The notes beneath the pieces were generated by a model that saw nothing but the letters and a program-made list of their open reading frames with translations, did no database searches and had not been told where the DNA came from. A program made the position numbers and the translations under genes. Shown here piece after piece: positions 4,065 through 36,385 of a stretch of DNA of 64,000 bases. The first letter of the stretch is position 1, and every line of letters begins with the position of its first letter. The stretch covers positions 24,633-88,632 of the forward strand of contig CAYIKL010000001.1 in the NCBI GenBank assembly GCA_964364045.1, read 5' to 3'. This stretch comes from an uncultured Methanosarcinales archaeon. Lineage in GTDB: Archaea > Nanobdellota > Nanobdellia > Woesearchaeales > JAGLXL01.

Positions 4065-5024
4065 ATGACCGAAAACCACGCCATGTGGACTGAAAAATAC
4101 CGCCCACAAACATTCTCTGACATCAAAGGCCATGAAGAAATAGTCAAGCGCATCCAAGCATTCGTTGAGCAGAAAAATATGCCTCACTTGCTCTTTTCAG
4201 GCCCTGCTGGTGTAGGGAAAACCTCTTTATCGTTAGTCATTGCACGTGCCTTATATGGCGACCAGTATAAGCAAAACTTTCTCGAGTTAAATGCATCGGA
4301 TGAACGCGGAATAGATGTGGTAAGAATCAAAGTAAAAGACTTCGCGCGAACGCGTTCCTTAGGCAACATCCCCTTCAAAATAATCTACCTCGATGAAAGT
4401 GACGCATTAACGCGAGATGCACAGCAAGCATTGAGAAGAACAATGGAACTCTACACGAAAACTGCACGCTTTATCCTCAGCTGCAATTACAGCAGTAAAA
4501 TTATTGATCCTATCCAGAGCCGATGCGCAGTCTTCCATTTCAAGCCATTAAAAAAAGAGGATATTTTTTCAATTATAACCAGTATCTCAACGAAAGAAAA
4601 TCTCACGATAACCGACGAAGCAAAAGAAGCGCTCCACCAAATCTCCGGCGGCGACTGCCGTCGTGTTGAAAACATCTTCCAAAGCTCAGCGGTAATACAC
4701 AAGCACATCACACCTGAAGTTATCTACACCACTGCCTCATTTGCCCATCCAAAAGAAGTGCGCGAATCAATGGAGCTTGCGCTCAAAAATGATTTCATAG
4801 CCGCACGCGATAAGCTATTCCAGACCATGCTCGAGCACGGCCTAAGCGGCTTAGACCTCATCAAACAGATTCAGCATGAAATCTGGAATCTGCACATTCC
4901 CGACCGTCAGAAAGTCGAACTGGTGGAAAAATGTGGTGAGATTGAGTTTCGGATGACCGAAGGAAGTGATGAGTTCATCCAGTTGGAGGCGTTGCTTGCT
5001 GCGATGGTGAAATTAAACGTTTAG
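4065..5024 (+). CDS. rfcS: Replication factor C small subunit
   Basis: The protein has Walker A FSGPAGVGKTS, Walker B IIYLDESDALT, the SRC motif (ILSCNYSSKIIDPIQSRC) and sensor 2. Confidence 0.9.
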   Translation: MTENHAMWTEKYRPQTFSDIKGHEEIVKRIQAFVEQKNMPHLLFSGPAGVGKTSLSLVIARALYGDQYKQNFLELNASDERGIDVVRIKVKDFARTRSLGNIPFKIIYLDESDALTRDAQQALRRTMELYTKTARFILSCNYSSKIIDPIQSRCAVFHFKPLKKEDIFSIITSISTKENLTITDEAKEALHQISGGDCRRVENIFQSSAVIHKHITPEVIYTTASFAHPKEVRESMELALKNDFIAARDKLFQTMLEHGLSGLDLIKQIQHEIWNLHIPDRQKVELVEKCGEIEFRMTEGSDEFIQLEALLAAMVKLNV

Positions 5025-5026
5025 AA

Positions 5027-5944
5027 CTAATCCGTACTCTCCTTTATCTTTATCGTCTGCTGAATGATTGTTCGATACTTGTACGTCAGCGTCAATTCAA
5101 CCTGCTTTGTAAATAACGTATCCTCAGCCAGTGGCGCTTTCAGCTTGCAAATAATTGTTGTCTTTCCTCCAACCAAGCGTGCTTCATTCTCTCTCCCGCC
5201 TGCTCTACATTCCCAGTCCGCAGTGTCAGTTTCAACGCTGTACGCAAGCTGTTCATATCGCGCATCAAAATCAGCATTTCTCAGCGTCACTTTCCCGCCG
5301 CCAACATTCTCAACATCAAGCGTCAGCACGATAATTCCTCTGCCTGCAATATCCTGCAACACGCTCTTTACCGTAACTGGTGCTCCTGACACAAAGAATG
5401 TTTTTGCTTCCTGCAGCTCGCATATGCTCTCATCACGCACATCTTCCTTATAACAAACTTTTGGAATTATAACATGCGTTTTATAGTTATAATCAACAAA
5501 TGCAAAGATGTCCGGCTGGAAAAAGCCAGTTACCCTATGCTTGTATTTTGCATCTTCATTTGGCGTGAAATCAATAACCTCTTCTTCCCCCTCCTTGTTA
5601 AACTCAGAAATCTTCTCGATGGTCTCTTTATTAACAATTTCCCCAGAAGCAATCCCGGTAAAATCACCAAGGTTTATCCCTCTGAGGCTGACGTGCACAT
5701 CGCCCGGCGCCATATCTTCTTCTCCTTTATTTCTCAGCACAACCTCGATGGGAAAATTTTCTGTGTCAAATATGGTAAAAACGCCGCTTTCTTCGATGCC
5801 GAACGGCTCAAAACGAGCAGCAATCCCCTGCGTTCCGCCGTCAAAGACCGATTCGACCTTAACAGTATCATTTTCACCTTTACAACCGACTAAAAACAGA
5901 AAGACAACCAACCCCAACAATAACACTCTTTTCATTTTAGGCAA
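5027..5944 (-). CDS. Secreted/lipobox-like surface protein, paralog 1 of 3
   Basis: The signal peptide ends in LVGC. It shares blocks with the two upstream paralogs (VCYxE, C-E-x...SGAPVTV, IICKL, LTYKY). Confidence 0.6.
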   Translation of the reverse strand: MPKMKRVLLLGLVVFLFLVGCKGENDTVKVESVFDGGTQGIAARFEPFGIEESGVFTIFDTENFPIEVVLRNKGEEDMAPGDVHVSLRGINLGDFTGIASGEIVNKETIEKISEFNKEGEEEVIDFTPNEDAKYKHRVTGFFQPDIFAFVDYNYKTHVIIPKVCYKEDVRDESICELQEAKTFFVSGAPVTVKSVLQDIAGRGIIVLTLDVENVGGGKVTLRNADFDARYEQLAYSVETDTADWECRAGGRENEARLVGGKTTIICKLKAPLAEDTLFTKQVELTLTYKYRTIIQQTIKIKESTD

Positions 5945-5978
5945 TAATTCTATTACTCTTTTTAAACGCTTCGAATTT

Positions 5979-6905
5979 TCAACCCGGCGTCCTTATTATT
6001 TCCACCGGCGTCCGCACTGACTGCATATAATTATAATTCAACTCAATGCGCAACGGCGTCTCATACGCTCTCGTGTTGCCTACATCAAACGTGCAGGTAA
6101 TCCTTCCTCTTCCTTCCTTTCCCATCCGCACTAAGAAATCCTGCGGCGAGCACGATACCATCGTCCCTGACGCCAATTTAATATTATATCTCACCTGGTC
6201 AAACTCATCGTACTTTACCCCGCCCAGACATTGTGTTAAACTGGTTCGCGGCGACACCACCCTCCCAGTTCCAACATTCTGGATGTCTATCTTGAATATC
6301 GCCCTGTTGCGCACCATATCAACATCAACAAATGTTACTGCAACCGGCGCTCCCTGCCCGCCGCCAACCGAAAAATCACGTACTTCACATGCACGCTGCT
6401 CGCGTGATACTTCAAAAAATGCCGGATCAATGCATACTTGAGGGCTGGCAACCGTCTGGTATTCATAACACACCGTCGCAACAACGCTTGGATTATAAAG
6501 ATCCACATCGCCGGGCAATAAAATATTGCTCGACTTGATTTCAACCGTGCCATACCCGCCGTCGATAAGGAACTCGCTTTTGCCCGGCAGTTCTCCGCAA
6601 AGCTGCCGCGCGTTCGCGCCGACACCGCGTATAATATTCTGGTCAAACCCGCCAAACTGGACAAAGCACTTATTTGCATTAATATCATAATTGCCAAGGT
6701 TATACATCTCCAGCACAGCAACTAAATCTGCATTATCATATATTTGCCGTGGCGGGAGATTCTCGACAAAATTCATTTCCACACCCTGCACTCCGGAGCG
6801 GACATATTTTGACACCGCAGAAACCTGATTGATATCTTCCGGTCGTTGCTGTGCGCATGCAAGAACAAAAAGCAGTCCAATAACCAGAAGCCTCTTCATT
6901 TTCAT
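5979..6905 (-). CDS. Secreted/lipobox-like surface protein, paralog 2 of 3
   Basis: The signal peptide ends in LACAQQ. It carries the conserved VCYEYQT, VCIDPA, CEV...GGGQGAPVAVT, ITCTF and LNYNY blocks. Confidence 0.6.
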   Translation of the reverse strand: MKMKRLLVIGLLFVLACAQQRPEDINQVSAVSKYVRSGVQGVEMNFVENLPPRQIYDNADLVAVLEMYNLGNYDINANKCFVQFGGFDQNIIRGVGANARQLCGELPGKSEFLIDGGYGTVEIKSSNILLPGDVDLYNPSVVATVCYEYQTVASPQVCIDPAFFEVSREQRACEVRDFSVGGGQGAPVAVTFVDVDMVRNRAIFKIDIQNVGTGRVVSPRTSLTQCLGGVKYDEFDQVRYNIKLASGTMVSCSPQDFLVRMGKEGRGRITCTFDVGNTRAYETPLRIELNYNYMQSVRTPVEIIRTPG

Positions 6906-6936
6906 AATTAATCTCCCTTGATTTTTAAAGTTTGTG

Positions 6937-7788
6937 TCATCCCAGTCGCCGTATCAGTATTTCTCCTTCCTCAATCGTCCTGTAGGTATAATACAGCGAT
7001 GCAGACAGCACTGTCGTGTATGGCCCTCGGCTGGGTTCGATGAATGTGCATACTAACAACGCATCACCCCTCTCAACCAGCTCAGCATCAAACTCTCGGC
7101 GTTCGCAGCGCAGGCGCCTGTTTGCAATCCTCACACTGTCGACAATCACTGGAGAGATAAGCTCTCCATCACCATTATTCTCAATTTTCAGCGTAAACTG
7201 TGCGCGTATGTTGTCTCCTTCACTGCTCACCAGCTCTTTCACTTCTGTAATTGCAATTGGAGCTCCTTGCCCACTGAAGCTCATCTCTTCTTCAACAACA
7301 CAACTGTCCTGTTCCGCTTCCAACCTCAGCATTGCGGGATTGATGCATACATCTGCGTTCAACACCGTCCGATAATCATACTCTGCCTGCACCCAAAATT
7401 TCTTTGTATATTCATCGCTTCCCAGAGGGATGAAGTTATTTTTCCCATGGAACTCCTCAATGTAGAACTCGCCGCTGGGCATGTTTGCATTTCTTCCCTG
7501 AATGACCTTCAGCACCTCATGCTCTTTGTCCAGTGTGCTGAGCGCTTTGCTGTAGCCCCATACTGCAACTTCCCCTTGTGTTGTGTCATAGGCGCCATTA
7601 TTGCTGATCTGCACCGCGATGGTGTATGTTCCGCCTTCTAAAATCTCTTTTGGTGGATAATTAGGCAGTAATTCCAGTTCCAATCCGTCATAGCCTTGCT
7701 TGTAATCAACTTCAATCGGCCGGTTTCCTCCTTGCGGCGTACACGCTATCAAAATCAGTACAACTCCGATAATGACAGCGTATTTCAT
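6937..7788 (-). CDS. Secreted/lipobox-like surface protein, paralog 3 of 3
   Basis: The signal peptide ends in LIACTPQG. It carries VCINPA, CVV...SGQGAPIAIT, LVCTF and LYYTY, the same Cys pattern as paralogs 1 and 2. Confidence 0.6.
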   Translation of the reverse strand: MKYAVIIGVVLILIACTPQGGNRPIEVDYKQGYDGLELELLPNYPPKEILEGGTYTIAVQISNNGAYDTTQGEVAVWGYSKALSTLDKEHEVLKVIQGRNANMPSGEFYIEEFHGKNNFIPLGSDEYTKKFWVQAEYDYRTVLNADVCINPAMLRLEAEQDSCVVEEEMSFSGQGAPIAITEVKELVSSEGDNIRAQFTLKIENNGDGELISPVIVDSVRIANRRLRCERREFDAELVERGDALLVCTFIEPSRGPYTTVLSASLYYTYRTIEEGEILIRRLG

Positions 7789-9509
7789 GTGACCGTGACT
7801 GAAAATTCTTCCTTTATTTTATAATCATATTTTATATAAGAGAGGTAAAAAGCAGTGAGAGGTACTTTCGGGTTCTTCAGCTCTTCGCTGAGTGTTGTTT
7901 TGCATGAGGCATACTGATATTCTTTCTCTTCCTTTTCTATCCCCAAATCTGGATTAACGAGTACTTCACCATCCTTAACCAACTTGCATGATGGTGTTTC
8001 TACTAGCGTAATGTCTTCAGGATAATCTACTAACAAAATACCTCCTTCTACCTGCTCAATTTTCCCATCCATTCTGTTTACAACATATGCCGATATCCGC
8101 GGGTCATCGCGTATTAACACCTCATCACCTATTTTAAAATCAAGCCAAACAGGATCATTTGAGCCGAGCGCTTCGCTTGCCCATTGGCTTTTCAAGTTTT
8201 CATCTCTTTTTTTGTTTTCTTCTTTTTGTTCACCAACATATACCCGATGTAAGCCCATACTTGTCTCCAACCCTTCAACAACAAAACTTACTGCAACACT
8301 CACTCTTCCTTTTGGCCATTCACCGGACGGCTCGCACGCAAACTCTTTTTGCTCCAGCTCTTTTTTGAAGTCATATACACCAACACTCCCAGCAATCACA
8401 TTTCCCGCACTCTTTACTTCACAATAAGATCTTCCGCGCACTTCCTGCCTCCGAGGATTTTTAAAAATGAGTTTAAAATCCATCGCCTGATTTTGCGCAA
8501 TGCTTGATGGAAATCTATCCGCCTTTTCTATTTTAAGTTCAGTAGGCTCTCTTTCTTTCGGGTCAACGCCTCCCGTAGGTTTTGAATCCTCTTTCAGTCC
8601 CATCACCTTGTTCATGCAATCTTTGTACGAAAGAGGATTGTTCTTGAACTCTTCACATTGCTCTTCAGCCCGATGCCGATCGATGCATTCTTTCAAGTTT
8701 GCTGCTTGCCCGCTCGTGGCACATTCCACTTTCCATTGAATTTCTTTCCACGCACTGGTCTTTTTCTGCAATTGGTTACTGGTATCTGCGCCCAATTCGT
8801 CGACATCTATCAAGTTATATCCTCCTGTTCCAGCTAGGGCAATGAGTGCATTTCCAAATGCAAAAAAAATGATAGCGATGAACGCCGCCACAAGCGAAAA
8901 CGTTTCAAACCACGTGAGCCCCTTGCCTTCCCGTTCCCTTCTCTTTTTGATTGAGCCCGATTCAATTATCCATAGTACTGCGCCTAACAATCCCCACAGA
9001 GGAAGACCACCTAAGATTGTCAAAATGGGGTTGTTTCTGGAGAGATTGAAGACATTCCATATAGCAACAAGATCAAAGAAGAAAATACCCAACGGAATCA
9101 GACTTAGTAACTCGTCGCTGACCGCTTTTCCAATATCACCATGATATTTGTATATGCCTCTAAAACCAATGTACCCAGCAATGATGATTGATGCACTTAC
9201 GATAAACAAGACATTGATATTCCTAATCGCCAAAAACAAAATAACAAGAGCAACATTTGTAACCACCCCTTTCCCTTTGAAAACAAGGAGAGAAACAAAT
9301 AGCAGGAAGAAAACACTATCCCACGGCTGAACACTAAATGGCAGATACTCCAATGGCAAAAAATCTCTCAAGTAAAACCAAGCTATACCCGCGATAAAAA
9401 GCAGTAAGCTGAACTGAAATCCTTCTTTATCGTCTTTTTTCTCTCTCTCTATAATTTTTATAGACCCACGATCTATTTCCACTTCTCTTTCGTCATCATC
9501 TTCCGCCAT
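7785..9509 (-). CDS. Polytopic membrane protein with a large C-terminal extracytoplasmic domain
   Basis: The 574-aa protein has an acidic N-terminus, then at least six hydrophobic helices, then a ~330 aa Cys-containing soluble domain. It overlaps paralog 3 by 4 nt, which suggests an operon. Confidence 0.5.
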   Translation of the reverse strand: MAEDDDEREVEIDRGSIKIIEREKKDDKEGFQFSLLLFIAGIAWFYLRDFLPLEYLPFSVQPWDSVFFLLFVSLLVFKGKGVVTNVALVILFLAIRNINVLFIVSASIIIAGYIGFRGIYKYHGDIGKAVSDELLSLIPLGIFFFDLVAIWNVFNLSRNNPILTILGGLPLWGLLGAVLWIIESGSIKKRREREGKGLTWFETFSLVAAFIAIIFFAFGNALIALAGTGGYNLIDVDELGADTSNQLQKKTSAWKEIQWKVECATSGQAANLKECIDRHRAEEQCEEFKNNPLSYKDCMNKVMGLKEDSKPTGGVDPKEREPTELKIEKADRFPSSIAQNQAMDFKLIFKNPRRQEVRGRSYCEVKSAGNVIAGSVGVYDFKKELEQKEFACEPSGEWPKGRVSVAVSFVVEGLETSMGLHRVYVGEQKEENKKRDENLKSQWASEALGSNDPVWLDFKIGDEVLIRDDPRISAYVVNRMDGKIEQVEGGILLVDYPEDITLVETPSCKLVKDGEVLVNPDLGIEKEEKEYQYASCKTTLSEELKNPKVPLTAFYLSYIKYDYKIKEEFSVTVT

Positions 9510-9624
9510 TATCTCCTCTTTTTAATATCAAACTAAACGTAATCCAGAACTAAACAACCAGCCTATAAAAACATTTCCGAGGAACGTGCTCAAAACCAAT
9601 TGCTTTTAACATATTTCCAACGAC

Positions 9625-10806
9625 TTACCTTTTCACCAGCTTCACGCTTAACTTCCTTACATCAATCGTCCGTTCCGGTTTTATCTTCACTGAATTATCT
9701 CCGCGCTCAACGTCATCGGTAATCTCTTTCTCAACATAAAGCTCTTTGGTGTCAAATCCTGTCACATGCCCGTTTACGATAATCTGCCCCTGTTTTCTGT
9801 CAATCGTATCAACAAAATCCAACCGCACAACAACCTCTCGTGACCTGTTCTGCACTGACTCAAACTCTTCTTCGCTTAATTCAAAGAAATAGAGCGGGAA
9901 ATCAATTTGTTTGAGCTGTGATTTTACTTTGATGTGTGAGATTGCATAATCCCCTTCCTCAATGCCAAAGATGAGCTCATTCTCTCCCAACTTCAGATGG
10001 GACGGCGGAACCTCGAGGCTCAACTTACGCACGCCGCAATCCGGTACTGCGGAATAAATATTGTATTCATTTATCCATATATCTAATGGACCAGTTCGTG
10101 CGGCATCACAATCCGGCTGAAACTCAAAATACACGCGGTCAATATTATTGTATTCAACCGCCGACACTAAAAATACGCTCTTGCTCCGCTGCGCATCTGT
10201 TCTCGTCACATCAGCCGTTACCTGAACATTCTCAAGCGCATACTCATTTGTTCTCCAGAACGCAGCGCCCGGCGAGCTCACACCAAACGTCAACACATTC
10301 TGCGATTTTAACAGTCGCGTGGGAAGCTCAACCGGCTGTACATTTGCCGTCGTGATTTCCTTATTCAACACCTCTTCGCCGTTCAACGACACGACGAGCC
10401 TGCCTTTTGCTCTGATGAGGGCAAAGCTCAACAATACGTTTTCTGTATTTGCCAGATCGCTGAATGAAAATTCCATGCTCTTTTCAACCGCTGAAAAAAC
10501 GGTTCTTTTCACGTACAGTGAATCAGCTTCTTCAATGACCATGCCTGCGGTGCGGGTAAAAATATACGTTGCCGGAATCGTGTGCTCCACCACGCGCTGG
10601 CTGAGATAGTCTATCCTTCCCGGCGTCTCGTTGAGCAGCGTGACATTTTTTGTCCTTGACGTGCTTCTCGAACCTGACTCACGAAAATCCTCGCCTAAAA
10701 TATCCGCACGATCCTCTGGCTGCAGAAAGATAATATAGCCAAGGATAAGAAATGCAATGACTGCGATTAACGCCGCTGCAGCGCCCGCCTGACCTTTTCT
10801 CACCAT
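9625..10806 (-). CDS. Type-II membrane-anchored secreted protein
   Basis: It has a single N-terminal TM (AAAALIAVIAFLILGYIIFL) and a ~360 aa ectodomain. No recognisable enzymatic motif is present. Confidence 0.5.
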   Translation of the reverse strand: MVRKGQAGAAAALIAVIAFLILGYIIFLQPEDRADILGEDFRESGSRSTSRTKNVTLLNETPGRIDYLSQRVVEHTIPATYIFTRTAGMVIEEADSLYVKRTVFSAVEKSMEFSFSDLANTENVLLSFALIRAKGRLVVSLNGEEVLNKEITTANVQPVELPTRLLKSQNVLTFGVSSPGAAFWRTNEYALENVQVTADVTRTDAQRSKSVFLVSAVEYNNIDRVYFEFQPDCDAARTGPLDIWINEYNIYSAVPDCGVRKLSLEVPPSHLKLGENELIFGIEEGDYAISHIKVKSQLKQIDFPLYFFELSEEEFESVQNRSREVVVRLDFVDTIDRKQGQIIVNGHVTGFDTKELYVEKEITDDVERGDNSVKIKPERTIDVRKLSVKLVKR

Positions 10807-10842
10807 TCCTCATCCAAAATCTTTATTAGTATATAAAATTTT

Positions 10843-11895
10843 TTGAATGCGATGAAGCTCCTCCTTACTGATTTTAAAAAAGGGCTGGTGAAGCTGCGCT
10901 TGACAAACCCTGAAGATTACTGGCATTTAAGCCAGATTATTAACGCAGGCGACATCATCAGCGGAAAAACAGTGCGCAAAGTCACGGTTGGCACCGAACG
11001 AACAACGCACGTCCAAAAGCCCGTCTTTCTTAAGATAGCAGTCGAGCGCACAGAGCTTGCAAATGGCGCACTGCGCGTGAGCGGGAAAATCCTAGAGGGC
11101 CCGGAAGATATCTCTCGTGGCAGTTATCATACATTTACGCTCGAACAGGACACCGAAATCTCCGTCGAGAAGGAATGGCTTTCGATCCACAAAGCGCAGC
11201 TGAAAGAGGCCGAACATGACCAAGCCCCCATCATTGTCTGTGTCTTTGATCGTGACGATGCGACGATTGCGCGCACTTCTCAGAAAGGCATGGTCATTCT
11301 TGCGCAGCTGCGCGGCGATCCGGAGCGAAAAGAGAAGCGTGCAAACACACGCACAGACCTGTATACTGAGATTATCGCTCTTCTTCAGCAGTATGATACG
11401 CGGTTTGCTCCGCAACATATCATTCTTGCAAGCCCGGCTTTTTACAAAGAAGATTTATTTGACCGAATCAGTGATAAAAAACTTAGGGAGAAAATAACGC
11501 TTGCAACCTGCTCTTCGTCGGGTGAAAATGCAATTCACGAAGTGCTTCGTCGACCAGAAACTCAGCATGCATTACGGCAGGTTCGCGCAGCTCATGAGAC
11601 TGAGATTGTTGACAAGCTGCTGACAGCGCTCGCCAAACAAAGCGCTGCCACATACGGGTTTGAGCACGTCAAAGCCGCATCTGAAGCAGGCGCAATTTCC
11701 GACATCCTCGTTACTTTTTCTTATATGAAAAAACTTCAGGAAAGCGGCAAGTTTCAGGAGCTCAATCTTATCCTGAAGCACATCGAGAGGCTGAACGGCA
11801 CGATCCACCTCATCAGTGCGGAGCACGATGCAGGAAAGAAGTTGGATGGGCTAGGCGGCATAGCTGCCTTGCTTCGCTATAAGTTGGAATGGTAA
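10843..11895 (+). CDS. pelA: Pelota/Dom34 mRNA surveillance factor
   Basis: The N-terminus MKLLLTDFKKGLVKLRLTNPEDYWHLSQIINAGDIISG is Pelota-like. There is an eRF1-like central and C-terminal domain without a GGQ motif. The length is 350 aa. Confidence 0.8.
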   Translation: MNAMKLLLTDFKKGLVKLRLTNPEDYWHLSQIINAGDIISGKTVRKVTVGTERTTHVQKPVFLKIAVERTELANGALRVSGKILEGPEDISRGSYHTFTLEQDTEISVEKEWLSIHKAQLKEAEHDQAPIIVCVFDRDDATIARTSQKGMVILAQLRGDPERKEKRANTRTDLYTEIIALLQQYDTRFAPQHIILASPAFYKEDLFDRISDKKLREKITLATCSSSGENAIHEVLRRPETQHALRQVRAAHETEIVDKLLTALAKQSAATYGFEHVKAASEAGAISDILVTFSYMKKLQESGKFQELNLILKHIERLNGTIHLISAEHDAGKKLDGLGGIAALLRYKLEW

Positions 11896-12889: not shown

Positions 12890-14416
12890 ATGTCCGTTGA
12901 GAAGAGTATAAAGATGCTTCACCCATTTGAACGTAAAGTACTTCCTCTGCTTTCAGATTCCACATTCTCAGATGTTGTCGTCAAATCAAGTCTGAAAGAC
13001 GTTGAAGTCATGCGTGCCCTTGAATGGCTTGAGAATAAGAGGCTCATCACGACAAAAAAGATAGAAAAGAAAGAGATTGTCTTGGGAAAGAATGGAAAGC
13101 TCTATGCTGAAAAAGGGCTGCCTGAACATCGCCTCCTTGATGCAGTTTGTGACCATGCTGTACCTCTTGCTGAGCTTTCACATCGCGCTCACCTTTCAAA
13201 AGAAGAGGTAGATGTTGCACTGGGCATCCTTCGCCGCTCTTATCTCATTCATATCAAAAAGGAGAAAGAAGTGGTTGTTGAAGCAACCACCGCTGGCAGG
13301 AAAGCTGCGAAAGAACATAAAACCCATAAATCTGCTGAGGAAAAATTTCTTGCTCGCTCTTTTCCTATACCTGTCAGCGCAGAAGATGAAGCACTGATAA
13401 AACAACTATTGTCACGCCGCGATATCATTACAATCAAAGAAACAAAAAATCGTGCCATAGCATTAACAACCGAAGGGCGTGCAGTGCTGAAGAAAGGCCT
13501 GGGCAAGGAGCTTCTTGGCTCTGTGACGCAATCGATGCTTCTCAATGCAGCATGGAAAAACAAGGAGTTTCGCGCATACGACGTGACAATCAACGTTCCC
13601 GCGCTTTATCCGGGTAAAAAGCATATGGTGACACAGGCAGTCGATTACATAAAGCAGATATGGCTTGAGCTCGGCTTTAAAGAGATGACAGGGCGAATGG
13701 TCGAAACCGCATTTTGGGATCTCGACGCATTATTTGTGCCTCAGGATCATCCTGCCCGTGATATGCAGGACACTTTTTACATTGCCGATCCTGATAAAGC
13801 AGAATTGCCTGAACGCGCAAAGCTCATCAAATCTGTTCATGAGCACGGGGGCAAAACGGGGAGCAAAGGCTGGGGCTCTTCTTGGAGTGAAGCAGAAGCA
13901 AAAAAACTGCTCCTTCGCACCCACATGACCGTGCTGAGCGCGCAAACATTAGCGCGGCTCAAAAAATCAGAGCTTCCTGCGAAATTCTTTGCCGTGGGAA
14001 AAGTGTTTCGTAATGAAGCACTTGACTGGAAGCATTTGTTTGAATTCTACCAGGTCGATGGCATTGTCGTTGATCCAAACGCAAACCTGAAGCATCTCAA
14101 AGGCTATCTCAAAGAGTTTTACCGCAAGATGGGTTATGAAAAGGTAAGAATTCGTCCTGCACATTTTCCTTATACCGAGCCGAGCTGTGAGGTTGAGGTA
14201 TTTCATCCGACAAAAAAGGAATGGGTTGAGCTTGGTGGAGCAGGAATTTTCCGTCCTGAGGTTGTTATTCCGTTGCTTGGCGCAGACATACCAGTGCTTG
14301 CCTGGGGCCTTGGTCTCGATCGTATCATCACTTCATACTATGGAATAACTGATCTGCGCGATCTCTATAAAAATGATATAAAAATGCTTCGTGAAGCAAA
14401 ACTATGGGTGAGATAA
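12890..14416 (+). CDS. pheS: Phenylalanyl-tRNA synthetase alpha subunit (archaeal type)
   Basis: The class II motifs are present (…FRNEALDWKHLFEFYQVDG…, GAGIFRPEV, AWGLGLDRI). The start is taken at the ATG 26 nt downstream of a TATA box. Confidence 0.9.
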   Translation: MSVEKSIKMLHPFERKVLPLLSDSTFSDVVVKSSLKDVEVMRALEWLENKRLITTKKIEKKEIVLGKNGKLYAEKGLPEHRLLDAVCDHAVPLAELSHRAHLSKEEVDVALGILRRSYLIHIKKEKEVVVEATTAGRKAAKEHKTHKSAEEKFLARSFPIPVSAEDEALIKQLLSRRDIITIKETKNRAIALTTEGRAVLKKGLGKELLGSVTQSMLLNAAWKNKEFRAYDVTINVPALYPGKKHMVTQAVDYIKQIWLELGFKEMTGRMVETAFWDLDALFVPQDHPARDMQDTFYIADPDKAELPERAKLIKSVHEHGGKTGSKGWGSSWSEAEAKKLLLRTHMTVLSAQTLARLKKSELPAKFFAVGKVFRNEALDWKHLFEFYQVDGIVVDPNANLKHLKGYLKEFYRKMGYEKVRIRPAHFPYTEPSCEVEVFHPTKKEWVELGGAGIFRPEVVIPLLGADIPVLAWGLGLDRIITSYYGITDLRDLYKNDIKMLREAKLWVR

Positions 14417-15189
14417 TGCCAAAAAATGAGACAGAAGAAATAAACCAAAAGATAAGTGCAATAAAAGAGAATAGGGGGGTCAATGATAACGTGCTCGACA
14501 CGAAAATTTCTTTGAGTGTCAAGGGAATACTTTCCGTGGTGCTTGCTGTGGTTGTGATAAGCGGTGCATTTCTCGCGGGAAGATATGTGTTTCCTTCCGG
14601 TACATCGTTGGCTGATTTTGCAAGTGCGGCCGCCGTCGTTGGAGTGTCTAAGGACGACTCTGTTTCAACAACTACAGAGCTAGAAGACAGTTCTAAGGAA
14701 GACACGAGTACTGATACACCAGTTGCAGAACCAGAAACAACAGAGGAAACTGCTGACGAAACAACAGAAGAAACAACAGACGAAGCAGCAGAAACTGATA
14801 CAGCAGATGAAGTGGTCATCACCAAAGATTACGCAAATGTTGTCCTTGAGTTCACGCGCACGCCTGCGTTTGAGTGGAAAGGCACGTGGGGAAAAATCAC
14901 GACGATATATTATACCCTCACTAACAACGAGGCAGGAACAATTAAGCCAGCTACTTTCAGGCTAACGGCAGAAGGCTATGACACAGCAGATTTTATCAAG
15001 ACTGCAGATGTTCCTAAAATTGATGGGGTGCTCTCCGCTGGCGAAGTCGCAAAGCATGGCGTTGACATAAAGTTGCAGTACAGTGAGTCAATAACCAATC
15101 CAACAAATCTGCGGCTCACGTTCCAGCTGTTTGATAAGGATGGCAATCTCATCGATGCAGTTACCGAAGAGTTTAATCTGAAAGAGTAA
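14404..15189 (+). CDS. Membrane-anchored protein with an acidic T/E-rich linker, inserted between pheS and pheT
   Basis: An N-terminal TM (SVVLAVVVISGAFLAGRYVF) is followed by a low-complexity TEETADETTEETTDEAAETDTADE stretch and a C-terminal ~130 aa beta-rich domain. Confidence 0.5.
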   Translation: MGEIMPKNETEEINQKISAIKENRGVNDNVLDTKISLSVKGILSVVLAVVVISGAFLAGRYVFPSGTSLADFASAAAVVGVSKDDSVSTTTELEDSSKEDTSTDTPVAEPETTEETADETTEETTDEAAETDTADEVVITKDYANVVLEFTRTPAFEWKGTWGKITTIYYTLTNNEAGTIKPATFRLTAEGYDTADFIKTADVPKIDGVLSAGEVAKHGVDIKLQYSESITNPTNLRLTFQLFDKDGNLIDAVTEEFNLKE

Positions 15190-17706: not shown

Positions 17707-18864
17707 TTAAGCGGCTGGTATATAAAGTTTCCTGCTTTCTGCTTCAGTCAGAATCTCAAGCCTGTTTGCCGTCGGCAGCACTTCAACCATTTTCTTCAGC
17801 GAATCTTTCGCATACGCAACTTTTGCCTGTGTCTCTCCAAACGGCTTGCCTGCATTCTCGTATAGATCCATAAATGCCTTTCTCCCACAACGCCCCTCCA
17901 AAAATCCTAACGTTTTTCTGATCTTTGATAGGGGAACAAGAACTCCATCTTCCGGTCTTCCAAGAATCGCATGAACAGCAGCATATATGGCATCATCAGA
18001 CACCTGCGTGCTATTCGTCTGTCTTTTAGGGGTCATAAGCCGGTTAAGTTTTTTAAGCGCTTCTCCTTCGATTTGTCTTACTCGTTCCCGTGAAAGATCT
18101 ATTTTATCTCCTATTTCCTGGAGCGTCATAGGAGAATAACCATTCAAGCCATATCTCATTTGAAGTATGTCAGCATCGCGTTCGCTCAACCATTCCAGCA
18201 TCTTGTTCATGAGTTCTACTTCATTCCCATATTCCAATGCGTCACCCGGACGCTCTGTATATGAACTCTCCAACGCATCCACAAGCTGCCCCTTATCTCC
18301 AACATGTGTTTCAAGTGACACTGTTGTCCCAAGAGTTAATGCCTTATAAAAAAGCTCATACCTTTCTTCAGGAATGTCCAACTTTGCAGCAAGTTCATGC
18401 ATCGTCGGCTCTCTGCCATTTTCAGAAACCATCTCTCTCGCGACTCTTTTCCAGTGCGCGATTTTCGGTACCAAATATGATGGAACACGTACCGTCTTTA
18501 CCTGATCTACCAGTGCACGTTTGATACTTTGGTGTATCCACCATGTTGCATAGGTTGAGAATCTGCACCCTTCCTCCAAATCAAATTTGCCCGTTGCTTT
18601 CATCAATCCAAGATTCCCTTCTTCAATAAGATCAAGAAGTCCCAACCCTCTGCTGACATACTTTTTTGCAATGCTGACCACAAGACGCAGATTTGAGTTA
18701 ATCAGCGCTTCTCGCGCTTCTTCATCCCCTTCATGTACACGTTCCGCAAGATTCCTTTCTTCTTCTCGTGAAAGAAGCTCAAATCTGTTCATTTCTATAA
18801 AATATTGTTCCAGAACATCTCGTTCATCCATATGTGTGCTAGAATATACACGATTAATAAGCAT
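17707..18864 (-). CDS. Bacterial-type sigma-70 family factor homolog (regions 1.2-2-3-4) with a novel ~100 aa C-terminal extension
   Basis: The sequence [74 protein letters not shown] aligns almost residue-for-residue with region 2.1-2.4 of RpoD ([52 protein letters not shown]...DQARTIRIP). [13 protein letters not shown] corresponds to region 3. ILQMRYGL...[28 protein letters not shown] is region 4.2. Confidence 0.85.
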
Positions 18865-21844: not shown

Positions 21845-22574
21845 GCTTTTCTTTTACCTCTTCTTGGACTTTCATCTCAACCAGCTTGTTGAGCGCATCA
21901 ACGCATGCGTACGCGACGTTGAGCGTCTTTCGTGCATTGCCGAACACCTTGCTCCATACATCCTGGATTCCCGCAAGCCGCAATATCTTTTGAACTTCTC
22001 TTTGCGCGACCAGCCCTTTTCCTTTTGGTGCCGGGATGAGTCTCAAACGGATAGAGCCGCACTTCCCTTCAACGGCATAGGGCAGCGAGTGCGGTTCTTT
22101 GCAGCCGCATTCCCAGCTTCCGCATCCCCGCCTAATTCTTTTAATGTTCAGTTTCGCTCTTCTGCTTGCCTTGTCGCGCGCCGGCACGGTTTCTTTGCTC
22201 TTTCCATAGCCAACGCCAACATAACCATTCTTGTTTCCAATAACAGCACATGTGGCAAAATTCGGCTTGTTCCCTTCAGCGGTTTTCTTTTGTGTCTGCC
22301 TAAATACCCTCCTCTGCCCGCCGCCAAACTTCCCTTTTGCCTGCCCGATGAGAAGCAGGTCGCTTTCACAGTTAGGAAGAAGCATCTCAATGATTTCAGG
22401 CTCAAGGATGGGGATGTTCCTGTCGAGTATGGAATCAATGTCTGTGATCTTTCCTTCTTTCACACTTCGTCCAAGCGCAGTTCTTGGCTGCCATGCAATT
22501 GTCTTGTCCTCACTCTCTGGCACCGCACCTACTTCTTTCCCGATCTCCGCTTTCACTACTTCTCCTTCTTTCAT
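21813..22574 (-). CDS. rps5: Ribosomal protein S5 (uS5)
   Basis: GKFGGGQRRVFRQT...CAVIGNKNGYVGVGYGKSKE...GSIRLRLIPAPKGKGLVA. Confidence 0.85.
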   Translation of the reverse strand: MKEGEVVKAEIGKEVGAVPESEDKTIAWQPRTALGRSVKEGKITDIDSILDRNIPILEPEIIEMLLPNCESDLLLIGQAKGKFGGGQRRVFRQTQKKTAEGNKPNFATCAVIGNKNGYVGVGYGKSKETVPARDKASRRAKLNIKRIRRGCGSWECGCKEPHSLPYAVEGKCGSIRLRLIPAPKGKGLVAQREVQKILRLAGIQDVWSKVFGNARKTLNVAYACVDALNKLVEMKVQEEVKEKLGFCEGERNA

Positions 22575-23131
22575 GTGCTCCCCTCTATCTTTTTCTTGAC
22601 ATTATCAAACAGCTGGGCAATTGCAACGGGGTTAACCCCCTGTCGTGCGTATCCTGTAAATCGCTCTTTGTTCTGTTGTGCATATGCGGCAATGTGCCCG
22701 CCTTTAATTCTTTCTTCACTGGGCAAAATTGATTCATCGACAGGAACATGAACTCCCGCATCCTTTAGTCCTTTCACGCATGCATATATTCTTCCACCCT
22801 TCACCGGGCTCCGCAATCCTGTATCGAGTACCGCTTCGCGTACATTTTTCTTGAGCGCAAGCCTGCCGAGCAGATAGCCCACAAGGTATGCAGCTGGCAC
22901 ATTTCCTTTATGCGCTTTCCAGCCAAACCGTTCAAGTGCCTTTCCTGTCGCGCCAACAACGATCTTATCACCTTTATCTTCGTATGTTGCAATTTGCGCT
23001 GTGATGTTGCTCAGTGCCGGCCGGACGATAATCCGCGCCATTCGTGTCCGAAGGAGGCGCAGCCGCTTGTAGTAATTTGTTTTCCCTTCCATCTTTCGCC
23101 TGAACGGCACCGTCTTCAGTTTCGTTCTCAT
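22571..23131 (-). CDS. rpl18: Ribosomal protein L18 (uL18)
   Basis: VPFRRKMEGKTNYYKRLRLL...RIIVRPALSNITAQI. Confidence 0.85.
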   Translation of the reverse strand: MRTKLKTVPFRRKMEGKTNYYKRLRLLRTRMARIIVRPALSNITAQIATYEDKGDKIVVGATGKALERFGWKAHKGNVPAAYLVGYLLGRLALKKNVREAVLDTGLRSPVKGGRIYACVKGLKDAGVHVPVDESILPSEERIKGGHIAAYAQQNKERFTGYARQGVNPVAIAQLFDNVKKKIEGST

Positions 23132-23574
23132 TTCATCAGTTTATTTTCTTCGATATACAATTTGATATGTCTCCTGTTACGGAAAAACCCTCCTTTTGAT
23201 TTTAGGTAGAGCATTCGATAAGTCTTTCTTTCTATTTTTTGCTGCTCCCGCAATTTCCCAAGCAGCCTTCGCTGGCTTCTCACCTTGTTGATCCAGCTCT
23301 TTTTGCGCGGCAAACGCGCAGTTTTTGTTCCCTTCCTGCTTCCTTGCCCTTTCCGTTGCCCACGCCTTTTTCGTGCTGCAAGCTTTCGTATTCTTCCATA
23401 TGAAATTCCCTGCATGGGCACTTCGGTGATTGCTCCTTCCCTGATTAAGCCTCGTAAGTCTAATTTTGTGATTGCTTCTTTGATATCTGCAAGCCGTTCC
23501 GTATCAAACTTTACCCTGTAGGGTGAACATTTCATAAGTTCTGCCGCGATCCGTCGTTGGTTTTTGAGGTCCAT
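23128..23574 (-). CDS. rpl19e: Ribosomal protein L19e
   Basis: MDLKNQRRIAAELMKCSPYRVKFDTERLADIKEAITKLDLRGLIREGAI. Confidence 0.85.
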   Translation of the reverse strand: MDLKNQRRIAAELMKCSPYRVKFDTERLADIKEAITKLDLRGLIREGAITEVPMQGISYGRIRKLAARKRRGQRKGQGSRKGTKTARLPRKKSWINKVRSQRRLLGKLREQQKIERKTYRMLYLKSKGGFFRNRRHIKLYIEENKLMK

Positions 23575-23575
23575 T

Positions 23576-24169
23576 TTATGCTCCTTTTAACATTGCCTTT
23601 TCTGCCTCTCGCCGCTGAGCTTCTTTATCTTGAGCTTTATCTCCACTCTTCTCTTCAGTGCTTCTCTCATCGAGCGTCTTTTCAGGCACGCGTTCTACTT
23701 TCTCTTTTCTTTTTTTCTCTAACAAACTTTTCTCTTTCTTTCGTTCTGTCATCTCTTTCTCAACACGTTCCCGAAACCTCTCCGCATCCCTAACATTGAG
23801 GACCATGACTCCTCTTTTCTGTGCCTCTGCAATGATCTGGATCTTTTTCTTCTTTCCAACCGTCGCGCTGATCAGTGCAACATGCTGCGAATCCACCCGT
23901 GCTACATCACGGACATTATGCACGATGAGCGGCAAATACCCTTCTCTCGTCATTCCTCTCACTTCTACCGGGCTCCTGTACCCCGGGCGTACCATTGGTG
24001 CCTTTCCTTTCCTGCTCAGGCGCATCTTTGAATGATGCCCACGCGGTTTTCTCCATACCGCTCCCATTTTTTTGACAAAGCGATGAGCGTCCTGTCTGAC
24101 AAAACGCTTCCGTGTCCTCATCTTCAGTTTCTCCTTCAGTTTCTCGTTCATTGCATTGGCTTCCCGCAT
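23576..24169 (-). CDS. rpl32e: Ribosomal protein L32e with a K/E-rich C-terminal extension
   Basis: RFVRQDAHRFVKKMGAVWRKPRGHHSKMRLSRKGKAPMVRPGYRSP. Confidence 0.8.
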   Translation of the reverse strand: MREANAMNEKLKEKLKMRTRKRFVRQDAHRFVKKMGAVWRKPRGHHSKMRLSRKGKAPMVRPGYRSPVEVRGMTREGYLPLIVHNVRDVARVDSQHVALISATVGKKKKIQIIAEAQKRGVMVLNVRDAERFRERVEKEMTERKKEKSLLEKKRKEKVERVPEKTLDERSTEEKSGDKAQDKEAQRREAEKAMLKGA

Positions 24170-24690
24170 TTATTGGTGATGAATATGCCGTCCTGAAATA
24201 TTCGTCTGTCCCGATGCCGCACACGGGTGAGGAGCTCGATCTGTGAAGCTGTTCTTCCCGCGCTTTCTTTGCTTGCGCTTTCTATGATGAGCTTGTCCCC
24301 TTCTACTTTGACTTTGACATCCTGTGGAATCGTCAGTTTTCTCGGCGCGCTTTCGCCAAGGAAATTTTTGATCACTAATTCACTGCCCGCAACAGCAACA
24401 TTCATGGGAAAATGTGCAGCGCATATCTTGAGTTCATAATGATGTCCGTCGATAACTCCCCGCAGCATATTCTTGATGTGTGCGGCAAATGTGTAGAGCC
24501 TTTTCTTGTCCCGTTTGGTTGCCTCTGCGCATTTCAGCAGTATCTTGCCCTCTTTTATGGAAACTTTAATGCGCGCATCTCTGACGCTGAGCGAGACTTC
24601 CCCCTTCTTTCCTTTAATGATAATGCCTCCCTCTGACTTTGCCTCGACATTTTCCGGAATTTCAATTTCCTCCTGTAGGTCTGTTTTCAT
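24148..24690 (-). CDS. rpl6: Ribosomal protein L6 (uL6)
   Basis: Two-domain L6 pattern, with its position between S8 and L32e. Confidence 0.8.
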   Translation of the reverse strand: MKTDLQEEIEIPENVEAKSEGGIIIKGKKGEVSLSVRDARIKVSIKEGKILLKCAEATKRDKKRLYTFAAHIKNMLRGVIDGHHYELKICAAHFPMNVAVAGSELVIKNFLGESAPRKLTIPQDVKVKVEGDKLIIESASKESAGRTASQIELLTRVRHRDRRIFQDGIFITNKCGKPMQ

Positions 24691-25079
24691 TAGTAGCAGT
24701 ATGCGATCAGTCTTCCTCCTATTCCATGTTTTTTTGCTTCTTCATGCGTCATGATACCTTTGGGTGTTGAGATGATTAGGATGCCAAATCCCTGCGCGGG
24801 CAGGTAGCGCTTCTCCCATTTTTCAAATTCGTTCAGCGTCGTGCTGAAGCGCGGTTTGACTGTTCCGCATTTATTGACGCTGCCGATCAGCTGAAGGTTG
24901 AGCATCCCGCCCCTTCCGTCTGCAACTTCTTCGTACGTGCCAATATATTTATGTTCGTTCATGATTTGTAGCACTCGTTTGATCACTTTTGACTGTGGTT
25001 TTATCGTGCAGCTTCTCTTTCCAACTTTCTCTGCATTCCCTATTTTCGATAGTGCGATTGATAGTGTGTCGTTTTGCAT
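24690..25079 (-). CDS. rps8: Ribosomal protein S8 (uS8)
   Basis: MQNDTLSIALSKIGNAEKVGKRSCTIKPQSKVIKRVLQIMNEHKYIG. Confidence 0.85.
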   Translation of the reverse strand: MQNDTLSIALSKIGNAEKVGKRSCTIKPQSKVIKRVLQIMNEHKYIGTYEEVADGRGGMLNLQLIGSVNKCGTVKPRFSTTLNEFEKWEKRYLPAQGFGILIISTPKGIMTHEEAKKHGIGGRLIAYCY

Positions 25080-25081
25080 GG

Positions 25082-25312
25082 TTAGCTATACTTTTTGAAT
25101 CCGAGCTGCACTGCAATCTCCCTAAAACATTGCCTGCACAATCCCACTCCGTATTTTCGTATATGTCCTCCAACTCTGTTGCAGCGCCTGCAGTGCCTTC
25201 GTGCAAGGCCGCAGCTTCTTTCCTTTGGTTTGTTGAATTTGTTGTATTTCTTCCATTTTACAGGCTTCGCCCGCAACTGTGTCTGTGCTTTTTTCCAGTC
25301 GCTCGTTGTCAT
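25082..25312 (-). CDS. rps14: Ribosomal protein S14 (uS14, zinc type)
   Basis: [25 protein letters not shown], a C4 zinc ribbon. Confidence 0.85.
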
Positions 25313-25358
25313 CTCAAAATCGCCTCGTTTTTGACGATGCTGAAAATGTCATTTTTCA

Positions 25359-28858: not shown

Positions 28859-28874
28859 AAAAATCTCACCCAGA

Positions 28875-29354: not shown

Positions 29355-29356
29355 GG

Positions 29357-36315: not shown

Positions 36316-36385
36316 ACAGTGCAGTACTCCTATGCAAGCTAGACTAGAGAAACCTTTTTATATCCCGAACTTCTCAAAATTCACC

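Follow-up and report, generated by a model that had tools for sequence, protein, structure and literature searches.

We found that five co-directional genes, here g1 to g5, on the minus strand of a 64,000-nucleotide Woesearchaeales window (the whole stretch of DNA that was analysed) may encode the subunits of a single ancient envelope complex specific to the Woesearchaeota/Nanoarchaeota lineage of the DPANN archaea. We put the probability of this reading, in which the complex is a structural or lectin scaffold, at roughly 45%. The complex would lie at the outer face of the cytoplasmic membrane, where g2, with about seven helices and a disulfide-rich ectodomain, would be its integral-membrane platform and g3, g4 and g5 would be three non-interchangeable lipid-anchored subunits, each consisting of two disulfide-stabilised Ig/CARDB-like β-sandwiches. 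g1 would be inserted by way of a prepilin-type signal, probably cleaved after Gly5, and, with the hydrophobic helix and flexible linker keeping it tethered, would display three jelly rolls of carbohydrate-binding type. Such a heteromeric scaffold would organise or anchor a surface layer or bind glycans, as a structural or lectin module and not as a variable adhesin. We infer the physical association of the five proteins from the ATGA coupling of g2 and g3, the conserved g1-g2-g3 synteny and the conservation of the orthologs; lipidation of g3-g5, cleavage of the g1 signal and the disulfide bonds are predictions from sequence, and the glycan binding and biological role ascribed to the cluster are putative.

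Table 1. Features of the five-gene cluster, with positions counted in the window
Feature	Position	Strand	Description
g1	9625..10806	-	393 aa; first gene of the cluster; prepilin-like signal, membrane-anchored, three jelly-roll ectodomains (predicted)
g1 class III signal	10720..10806	-	aa 1-29; charged N-terminus MVRK, predicted G5/Q6 site, ~23-residue hydrophobic helix
g1 jelly-roll D1	10198..10653	-	aa 52-203; follows the disordered linker; from secondary structure and pLDDT
g1 jelly-roll D2	9907..10197	-	aa 204-300; invariant C233 and C257
g1 β-sandwich D3	9628..9906	-	aa 301-393; from secondary structure of the model and pLDDT
g2	7785..9509	-	574 aa; polytopic membrane protein; from ORF and hydropathy profile
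g2 membrane domain	8820..9413	-	aa 33-230; family consensus motifs FFLDxG and PWWxxLGL
g2 extracytoplasmic domain	7788..8819	-	aa 231-574; four-Cys segment, then β-rich domains
g3	6937..7788	-	283 aa; lipobox protein
g3 lipobox	7752..7741	-	LIAC; canonical
g4	5979..6905	-	308 aa; lipobox protein, tandem β-sandwich pair (predicted)
g4 lipobox	6866..6855	-	VLAC; non-canonical Leu at -2
g5	5027..5944	-	302-305 aa; lipobox protein
g5 lipobox	5893..5882	-	LVGC; canonical
Divergent g1/Pelota intergenic region	10807..10851	.	45 bp; read from sequence

The genes are transcribed in the order g1 to g5 (Table 1), the reverse of that given in a preliminary description of this DNA, so that g1 comes first and the paralogs g3-g5 last. 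The stop codon of g2 and the start codon of g3 overlap by 4 nt (ATGA, 7785-7788). This is the sole overlap in the cluster; the 4-nt overlaps described earlier reduce to this one, and the other junctions are gaps of 115 nt (g1-g2), 31 nt (g3-g4) and 34 nt (g4-g5). The start of g5 is more probably the ATG at 5935 (MKRVLL...) than the TTG at 5944. A TTTTATATA box at 10830-10838 in the region between g1 and Pelota, centred ~28 nt upstream of the g1 ATG, marks a candidate promoter. Homologs support all five as real genes (at least 100 for g4 among the matches listed, 203 for g1 and 67 cluster representatives for g2). The earlier view of a five-gene cell-envelope cluster is supported.

Scans of g1-g5 against Pfam and NCBIfam returned only scattered sub-threshold matches (TraK_C, CARDB, BcsB, DUF3646), which we regard as noise or as signals of a generic fold. 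The individual sequences in the alignments of the three families (g1, g2 and g3-5), all scanned against Pfam, likewise gave only scattered sub-threshold matches, profile-sequence searches of the PDB with the three families gave no match and literature searches found no description of any of them. They are three unannotated families restricted to the Woesearchaeota/Nanoarchaeota lineage, and the earlier impression that none of the five proteins has a recognisable domain was correct. Since no enzyme family or known domain was matched and lipobox signals are present, neither finding named beforehand as speaking against the preliminary description (paralogs belonging to a well-characterised enzyme family, or lacking signal peptides) was made. 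The conserved cysteines of the g1, g2 and paralog families are confined to the predicted extracytoplasmic parts. A DsbA gene is present in one related genome (L077).

The paralogs g3, g4 and g5 share 24-25% pairwise identity and each opens with positively charged residues, followed by a hydrophobic segment and a lipobox-like L-x-x-C, as expected of the three secreted lipobox proteins of ~300 residues described earlier. A positive n-region, an h-region and the [LVI][ASTVI][GAS]C motif within ~15-35 residues, which together define a lipobox-lipoprotein signal, were found in g3 and g5 and, with a non-canonical Leu at -2, in g4, and 75 of 84 family members match the lipobox in a regular-expression scan, the others being near-variants. 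Across the 84 members the lipobox cysteine (C17) is conserved to at least 90%, and it is present in ~74 of the 79 paralog ORFs of related loci, the remaining five being near-variants or ORFs that were trimmed wrongly. In the mature regions three cysteines are invariant in the three-way alignment, and we take a fourth (C228 in g3, C252 in g4 and C246 in g5) to be equivalent although it is misaligned there. A conserved cysteine framework is thus shared as first described, with the exception of the "VCY.Y" cysteine (C146), which belongs to the g4 lineage only and has no counterpart at that position in g3 or g5. Structure prediction, proposed earlier for one paralog, yielded AlphaFold models of g4 and also of g1, both with a pLDDT of ~91. 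The g4 model has two tandem Ig/CARDB-like β-sandwiches, and the fold predicted for g3-g5 differs from that of solute-binding proteins. The CARDB family (PF07705) was not assigned, the Pfam gathering threshold not being reached, and the mature parts of g3-g5 are a new family of two predicted β-sandwiches with no Pfam match.

The hydropathy profile of g2 agrees with the earlier account of at least six transmembrane helices and a large ectodomain: a cytoplasmic, acidic and variable N-terminus is followed by about seven hydrophobic helices and then by a 345-aa ectodomain with eight cysteines. An exhaustive phmmer search gave 67 representative homologs at 24-31% identity; a word-based search, swamped by membrane and low-complexity words, had given three matches. 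In the family alignment W172 is invariant and D146 nearly so, seven ectodomain cysteines are conserved, and no Pfam family was matched by more than two of the 43 members scanned. The last ectodomain (aa 445-574) aligns in hhalign with both paralog domains (D2, probability 65%, E 6e-5; D1, 46%, E 2e-4), and the whole-profile comparison of the g2 and paralog families has a probability of 10.6%. This weak to moderate signal suggests that the last ectodomain of g2 may be the same module as the β-sandwiches of the paralogs. The conserved polar residues D146 and W172 in the membrane domain could indicate an enzyme or a transporter. Assignment of g2 to AglB/STT3 was rejected: it has about seven membrane helices against 13, no member of the 43 scanned has an STT3 Pfam match, and its PWW motif sits within a membrane helix, whereas AglB/STT3 is recognised by DxD together with WWDYG in a C-terminal domain. 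Prepilin peptidase, archaeosortase and rhomboid were rejected as well, with no matching catalytic motifs in the alignment and no Pfam match.

The preliminary description had g1 as a type-II anchored protein, but its N-terminus, MVRKG|QAGAAAALIAVIAFLILGYIIF, points to a class III (prepilin-like) signal with a predicted prepilin-peptidase site at G5|Q6. PMC4371748 describes such a site, lying ahead of the hydrophobic domain, as a charged residue at -2, G, A or S at -1 and then ~20 hydrophobic residues, and g1 has this arrangement. The [KR]-G-Q motif precedes the hydrophobic helix in 91 of 117 g1 homologs, and Q6, A7, A10, A11, L13 and I17 are each at least 90% conserved. The remaining homologs, judged by eye, mostly have [KR]-A-Q or x-G-Q. 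In the model, the helix (aa 7-27) is separated from the 340-aa globular part by a 14-residue linker (aa 38-51) with pLDDT below 50. An hhalign comparison shows D1 and D2 to be repeats of common origin (probability 96.7%, E 3.4e-10), and the modelled jelly rolls resemble domains of PNGase F, BcsB and carbohydrate-binding modules.

The arrangement was sought in related genomes, as had been proposed, and the order Pelota, g1, g2, g3 was found in at least 72 Woesearchaeota/Nanoarchaeota genome loci. g2 comes after g1 in 55 of 59 loci, and a g3-type paralog after g2 in 55 of 56. Of 56 related loci, 36 retain the 4-nt ATGA overlap between g2 and g3, and five others have an 8-nt overlap instead. The three paralogs stand side by side in 8 of 44 loci. 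g4 and g5 lie apart from g1-g3 in 36 of 44, so they may act independently, and they adjoin RFC whether they stand beside g3 or elsewhere in the genome; in L001 and L042 the non-adjacent g4 and g5 are still paired beside RFC. Two loci (L003 and L004) have the same layout and flanks as the cluster described here, at ~50% identity. In one genome g1 and g4 are ~48 genes apart on one contig (locus tags COV20_04255 and COV20_04495), and L070, L071 and L074 carry a polytopic protein at the place of g2. The neighbourhoods of distant homologs (L001, L076 and L077) contain unrelated housekeeping genes and gave no functional hint.

In a comparison with L004, same-position identities of the paralogs are 37% (g3), 49% (g4) and 59% (g5), against 25-28% off the diagonal; the best match of each paralog is the same-position paralog in other genomes, which indicates that the triplication is ancient and fixed. 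At 55%, g1 and, at the values just given, g4 and g5 are as conserved as or more conserved than their housekeeping neighbour Pelota (49%), and in one genome pair the dN of g1 (0.106) is below that of Pelota (0.181). Ortholog dN/dS values for g1, g4 and g5 are ~0.03-0.1, and are rough because dS is saturated; orthologs were used since the paralogs, at their low identity, are far beyond saturation. Position-matched paralogs, conservation at the level of Pelota and low dN/dS together argue for an ancient complex under purifying selection and against the diversifying surface paralogs, or adhesins, envisaged at first.

These data also bear on the idea that the cluster is a host-attachment or adhesion module, in which the surface proteins bind the host of an episymbiotic archaeon and the lectin-like domains of g1 recognise host glycans. 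A surface location is predicted for all five proteins, the carbohydrate-binding type of the g1 jelly rolls is compatible with such a role, and passages in PMC11291902 and PMC11329633 describe all DPANN archaea cultivated to date as ectosymbionts that need direct host contact. However, passages in PMC8421398 have Woesearchaeota spanning many habitats, between which hosts would be expected to differ, and a host-specific adhesin would then be expected to vary. Instead, the genes are single-copy and at least as conserved as Pelota, their synteny is fixed among housekeeping genes, and the paralogs are ancient and orthologous by position, not diversifying. A core structural complex fits this housekeeping-level conservation and fixed single-copy synteny better, and we consider host attachment unlikely.

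The class III signal of g1, with its EppA-type KGQ site, raises the alternative of a type-IV-filament-related system, in which a PilB/PilC-type machine builds cleaved g1 into a pilus, tip or bindosome-like structure and g2-g5 are accessory. A system of this kind (system 1, Epd type) has been reported in DPANN (bioRxiv 10.64898/2026.04.22.720090), and passages in PMC3047682 describe sugar-binding proteins of Sulfolobus with class III signals that form a bindosome. An assembly ATPase, platform protein and peptidase are, however, absent in or beside the cluster at every locus examined: prepilin peptidase and PilB/PilC were found neither in the cluster nor in the 10-kb flanks of L003, L076 and L077, and these and AliA were not seen among the 20 window ORFs scanned, the genome being incomplete. 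The linked peptidase or assembly machine by which a type IV pilin-like protein is recognised thus does not accompany g1 within the regions scanned. Filament-forming pilins are not known to have a disordered segment like the low-pLDDT linker predicted in g1, and lipoproteins are, to our knowledge, not among the components of pili. We regard a filament as distinctly improbable.

A glycan-processing or transport machine, with g2 as a membrane enzyme or permease, g1 as a PNGase F/BcsB-like glycan handler and g3-g5 as accessory lipoproteins, would be in keeping with the invariant Trp and nearly invariant Asp in the g2 membrane domain. However, each fold match of g1 aligns one domain at a time, over ~110-140 residues at 7-18% identity. 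BcsB (PF03170), for which we required a Pfam match across its architecture (two carbohydrate-binding domains and flavodoxin-like domains with a C-terminal anchor), was matched weakly in just 2 of 117 members. PNGase F, for which we required both jelly-roll domains of the enzyme, its conserved catalytic acids and a sequence match at family level, was absent from the Pfam scans of the same 117 members. In the L003, L076 and L077 neighbourhoods the cluster has no linked ATPase, glycosyltransferase or synthase, and g3-g5 lack the predicted fold of solute-binding proteins. This machine seems very unlikely to us. Least probable of all is that the genes are mere neighbours of unrelated function: the flanking Pelota and RFC are syntenic too, so the region is generally stable, and g4 and g5 are often elsewhere, but g2/g3 translational coupling is conserved, g1-g2-g3 cohere in ~55/56 loci while the genes downstream of g3 vary, and all five proteins are predicted to be extracytoplasmic, with g2-g5 possibly sharing a domain type.

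Woesearchaeota are abundant and uncultured, and we know of nothing reported on their cell-envelope proteins. A bolder version of the scaffold reading, which we hold to be rather unlikely, is that the cluster is an undescribed core envelope machine that defines the Woesearchaeota/Nanoarchaeota, a heteromeric lipoprotein/membrane-platform assembly with a prepilin-processed lectin. It would mediate a cell-surface function on which these archaea, with their reduced genomes, depend, and would be no more dispensable than the translation and replication genes beside it. Its function could be envelope or S-layer anchoring with glycan-mediated contact with, or uptake from, partner cells. The three families, conserved at housekeeping level and predicted to be at the surface, are targets for metaproteomics, cryo-ET labelling, antibody cell-sorting and structural work, and the cluster is a DPANN test case for two maturation routes of archaea, prepilin-type processing and lipidation at a lipobox. 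A complex that anchors the envelope or touches partner cells would bear on the lifestyle of reduced-genome archaea; if it does neither, the cluster is an ordinary lineage-specific surface-protein group, of which archaea have many (PMC9258230).

Among known systems, the g1 signal most resembles that of the Epd pilins of M. maripaludis, which have a KGQ/RAQ site with Gln at +1 and are processed by EppA (PMC4371748). As in EpdA-E, its motif precedes the hydrophobic domain and takes the form KGQ, RGQ or RAQ, in which position -2 is charged, -1 is G or A and +1 is Gln (PMC4371748), and, like the Sulfolobus bindosome proteins, it bears a large globular domain that is not pilin-like. It differs from the proteins processed by EppA/PibD in lacking the +5 Glu and a linked assembly ATPase or platform, in its predicted disordered linker and three jelly rolls, and in a modelled fold other than that of solute-binding proteins. 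PMC12462473 predicts that lipobox proteins are common in DPANN. g3-g5 share with the AliA/AliB-dependent lipoproteins of Haloferax volcanii a Sec-type signal with [LVI]-x-[GAS]-C at its end, the Cys being conserved across the family; in contrast, their mature parts are a new, predicted two-β-sandwich family, and their lipidation is a prediction.

Passages in PMC4425475 describe FlaF as a monotopic membrane protein whose β-sandwich ectodomain binds the S-layer protein. The tie from archaellum to S-layer made by ArlF/ArlG (FlaF/FlaG) is a functional parallel to g1 in a putative role of envelope anchor, although no sequence or specific fold relation to g1 was detected and no archaellum genes lie nearby. 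With three domains, g1 is presumably about twice as long as ArlF/ArlG. The paralogs match CARDB/macroglobulin Ig-like domains (PF1109 CARDB, 3idu; bacterial α-2-macroglobulin lipoprotein, 4u48) below the Pfam threshold, and differ from them in their own motifs (GQGAP and the Cys framework), a fixed two-domain architecture and the lack of a thioester or other functional module. g1 similarly stands apart from BcsB, PNGase F and carbohydrate-binding modules, having neither a family-level sequence match nor a synthase partner. The WxL/Csc operons of Firmicutes use other anchors, in another domain of life, and are not homologous to the cluster (WxLIP is among the Foldseek matches, with a TM-score of only ~0.2). 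By analogy, however, the cluster may be likened to these small operons, whose products are several surface proteins with different anchors that come together on the envelope.

The window DNA is archaeal, and its gene content includes FEN1, the RFC small subunit, Pelota, PheRS alpha and beta, tRNA-splicing endonuclease and SecY, together with a primase, a Hef-like helicase-nuclease and ribosomal proteins. Among the matches listed, the genes studied here have homologs solely in metagenome-assembled genomes (MAGs) labelled Woesearchaeota, Nanoarchaeota, Nanoarchaeia or Nanobdellota and in binned MAGs with the generic title ‘uncultured Methanosarcinales’. The five-gene envelope cluster of the preliminary description is borne out as five co-directional ORFs, numbered g1 to g5 in transcription order. 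The 4-nt overlaps ascribed to it hold for g2/g3, the sole overlapping pair (ATGA), but not for the other junctions, where gaps of 115 nt (g1-g2), 31 nt (g3-g4) and 34 nt (g4-g5) are found. The starts of g1 and Pelota diverge across 45 bp (10807-10851); a spacer this short, holding one TTTTATATA element (10830-10838), suggests a promoter that serves both directions and transcripts with hardly any leader.

Features of the window, with protein identity to two related loci where compared
Feature	Coordinates	Strand	Description	Identity to L004 (%)	Identity to L062 (%)
Pelota			ATG 10852	49	40
g1	10806..9625	-	ORF, 393 aa, first transcribed	55	38
g2	9509..7785	-	ORF, 574 aa	27	25
g3	7788..6937	-	ORF, 283 aa	37	25
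g4	6905..5979	-	ORF, 308 aa	49	44
g5	5944..5027	-	ORF, 305 aa; ATG 5935 is the likelier start	59	45
RFC small subunit	4065..5024		319 aa, without intein	49	66
Possible anchored protein	14404..15189	+	261 aa
Sigma-70 ORF	17707..18864	-	385 aa
AT-skewed region	22000..30000
Further lipobox protein	35656..36315	+
M48 peptidase	36332..37240
Lamin-tail protein	49611..51725	+	704 aa
DNA gyrase A subunit	53161..55596	+	bacterial-type (E 9e-166)
Channel-like protein	60854..61765	+	303 aa

Gene order was surveyed by scanning one genome per species, which gave 72 loci encoding g1, and by running three family profiles on the six-frame ORFs of these loci. Of the 59 loci that extend far enough, 55 have g2 directly downstream of g1; a paralog (g3-g5 family) comes next after g2 in 55 of 56, and Pelota is divergently upstream of g1 in 46 of 54. 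The full arrangement, with all three paralogs adjacent and then RFC as in the window, occurs in 8 of 44 loci. In L070, L071 and L074, which the g2 profile misses, the g2 position is taken by a polytopic protein of 492-1032 aa. Of 56 loci, 36 retain the ATGA overlap between g2 and g3, and 5 more have an overlap of 8 nt. Downstream of g3 stand unrelated housekeeping genes that differ by lineage; g4 and g5, where apart from g3, remain paired beside RFC (L001, L042), and in one genome g1 and g4 share a contig about 48 genes apart, as judged by locus tags (COV20_04255, COV20_04495). The RFC gene beside the cluster in L003 (11842-14727) and L004 (15986-18871) encodes 961 aa including an intein (Intein_splicing).

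The first description found no domain recognisable by eye, and none of g1-g5 has an above-threshold match in Pfam or NCBIfam, profile-sequence searches of the PDB gave no match for any of the three families, and a Pfam scan of all aligned members of the three families found no consistent family, with nothing shared by more than 2 of 43 g2-family members and scattered matches to CARDB (6 of 84 paralog-family members) and BcsB (2 of 117 g1-family members).

The three paralogs are 24-25% identical to one another. At each N-terminus, K/R residues and a hydrophobic stretch lead up to an L-x-x-C-like lipobox (LIAC in g3, VLAC in g4, LVGC in g5). Conservation of its Cys reaches at least 90% across the 84-member family alignment, and essentially all of 79 paralog ORFs from related loci have it or a near-variant, in agreement with the description of the paralogs as lipobox-like secreted proteins. 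A three-way alignment finds three invariant Cys in the mature region, and a fourth is, by our reading, positionally equivalent; the ‘VCY.Y’ Cys of the proposed four-Cys framework, however, is among the extra Cys conserved in g4 orthologs and is not common to all three. In the predicted g4 structure (pLDDT 91.8, pTM 0.86) two beta-sandwiches stand in tandem; the linker between them (aa 160-187) is modelled with less confidence and contains two of the conserved Cys. According to published predictions, lipobox proteins are common in DPANN (PMC12462473). The use of lipobox signals in this genome extends beyond the cluster, since the gene immediately upstream of that for an M48 peptidase encodes a further lipobox protein (MKTPHEIILSLSLSLLLFLASC...).

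In L004 and L015 the best match of each paralog is its positional counterpart, with same-position identities in L004 of 37, 49 and 59% against 25-28% off the diagonal; in L062 and L067, which are more distant, the pattern weakens for fast-evolving g3 and, in L067, for g5. Pelota and g1 have dN values of 0.181 and 0.106 against L078, a close relative with both genes, and g4 has 0.115 against L079; omega is about 0.03-0.1, an approximate value only as dS is saturated (1.6-3.0). Same-position matching therefore indicates that the triplication is old and that each copy has its own conserved role. By these comparisons purifying selection acts on g1, g4 and g5 as strongly as on the translation factor Pelota, and g2 and g3 evolve faster. 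The paralogs had been described as diversifying, which their orthology, the Pelota-level identity of g4 and g5 in L004 and the low omega contradict.

The g1 protein had been taken for a type-II anchored protein. It starts with MVRKG and continues as QAGAAAALIAVIAFLILGYIIF, and [KR]-G-Q stands immediately ahead of the hydrophobic helix in 91 of 117 homologs, the remainder having, by eye, mostly [KR]-A-Q or x-G-Q; Q6 and the alanines after it show at least 90% conservation. A class III signal has its processing site ahead of the hydrophobic domain, archaeal substrates require a charged residue at -2 and G, A or S at -1, and in the EppA-dependent Epd pilins of Methanococcus maripaludis the site reads exactly KGQ or RAQ, the +1 Gln being obligatory (PMC4371748). 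Since G-Q would not need to be conserved in a plain anchor, the most fitting label for g1 is a prepilin-like (class III) protein with a predicted cleavage site. Its predicted structure (pLDDT 91.2) has a helix (aa 7-27), a disordered linker (aa 38-51) and three beta-sandwich or jelly-roll domains, the first two related by internal duplication (hhalign probability 96.7%, E 3.4e-10).

The polytopic nature and large extracytoplasmic domain claimed for g2 stand: about seven hydrophobic helices within aa 33-230 precede a 345-aa region with eight Cys, seven of them conserved in the family. Its last ectodomain (aa 445-574) gives weak to moderate profile matches to the paralog domains (65%, E 6e-5; 46%, E 2e-4), and whole-profile comparison with the paralog family reaches 10.6% only; a beta-sandwich module common to g2-g5 is plausible.

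Elsewhere in the window, the sigma-70 ORF has the complete bacterial architecture (regions 1.2, 2, 3 and 4; E 1e-9 to 6e-19) and adjoins YidC/EMC3-like and SecY genes; such genes were previously reported in Woesearchaeota (PMC8204110). A bacterial-type gyrase A subunit is likewise encoded in this DPANN contig. The channel-like protein, with an N-terminal signal, beta-rich ectodomain and four C-terminal membrane helices, has the topology of a pentameric ligand-gated ion channel and so may be a prokaryotic Cys-loop-receptor-like channel; its Neur_chan_LBD match is weak and below threshold (E 5.5e-4). The lamin-tail protein (E 9e-21) carries a signal at its N-terminus and a membrane helix at its C-terminus and is a candidate for a large protein of the surface or S-layer type. 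The 261-aa protein, without a Pfam match, combines a single membrane helix (about aa 33-55) with a Thr/Glu-rich acidic linker and a beta-rich C-terminal domain and may be another small anchored surface protein; a 165-aa antisense ORF overlaps its gene. Strongly negative AT skew (about -0.3) extends over about 8 kb with many short minus-strand ORFs, probably a putative ribosomal-protein or RNA-polymerase operon.

Because extracytoplasmic Cys are conserved, the gene set is fixed, stoichiometric-looking and translationally coupled, and a beta-sandwich module is possibly shared, we propose, with a probability of about 0.45, that the g1-g5 products form a single heteromeric membrane-proximal complex. 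All five would lie on the outer side of the cytoplasmic membrane: g2, held by seven helices, would act as a platform; g3-g5, held by a predicted N-terminal lipid on the lipobox Cys, would be three non-interchangeable subunits; and g1, held by its prepilin-type helix, would be a taller, flexibly tethered subunit showing three lectin-type domains. In line with the conserved extracytoplasmic Cys, a related genome (L077) has a DsbA gene, which sits next to an EMC3-like gene. Literature searches found no description of the three families or of the gene set. Class III signals are widespread in archaea, and the fold types of g1 and the paralogs are common ones. We rate both signal types and the folds as already known, and the three families and gene set, as a proposed lineage-specific archaeal surface-protein complex, as new. 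Enrichment of archaeal lineage-specific hypothetical proteins in membrane helices and signal peptides is a general observation (PMC9258230).

That g1-g5 constitute a distinct core envelope machine of this lineage is rather doubtful. The host-adhesion module suggested earlier is unlikely: surface location and lectin-like folds are compatible with it, but housekeeping-level conservation and fixed single-copy synteny fit it poorly. Epd-type (system 1) type-IV-filament loci occur in DPANN according to a 2026 preprint (bioRxiv 10.64898/2026.04.22.720090), and the class III signal would suit g1 as a subunit of a filament or bindosome-like assembly; with no ATPase, platform or peptidase linked in any locus examined, and a disordered linker behind the helix that is atypical of filament pilins, we consider this quite unlikely. 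A glycan-processing or transport machine, for which single-domain fold matches and conserved Asp and Trp in the g2 membrane domain speak, is less likely still. Unrelated neighbours are highly improbable given the coupling and the persistence of g1-g2-g3 while downstream genes change.

The role of the proposed heteromeric complex would most likely be structural, in organising or anchoring the surface layer or in glycan binding, which we hold with less confidence than the complex itself. Its functional analogs would be ArlF/ArlG, which tie the archaellum to the S-layer (PMC4425475), and the envelope-integrated bindosome (PMC3047682).
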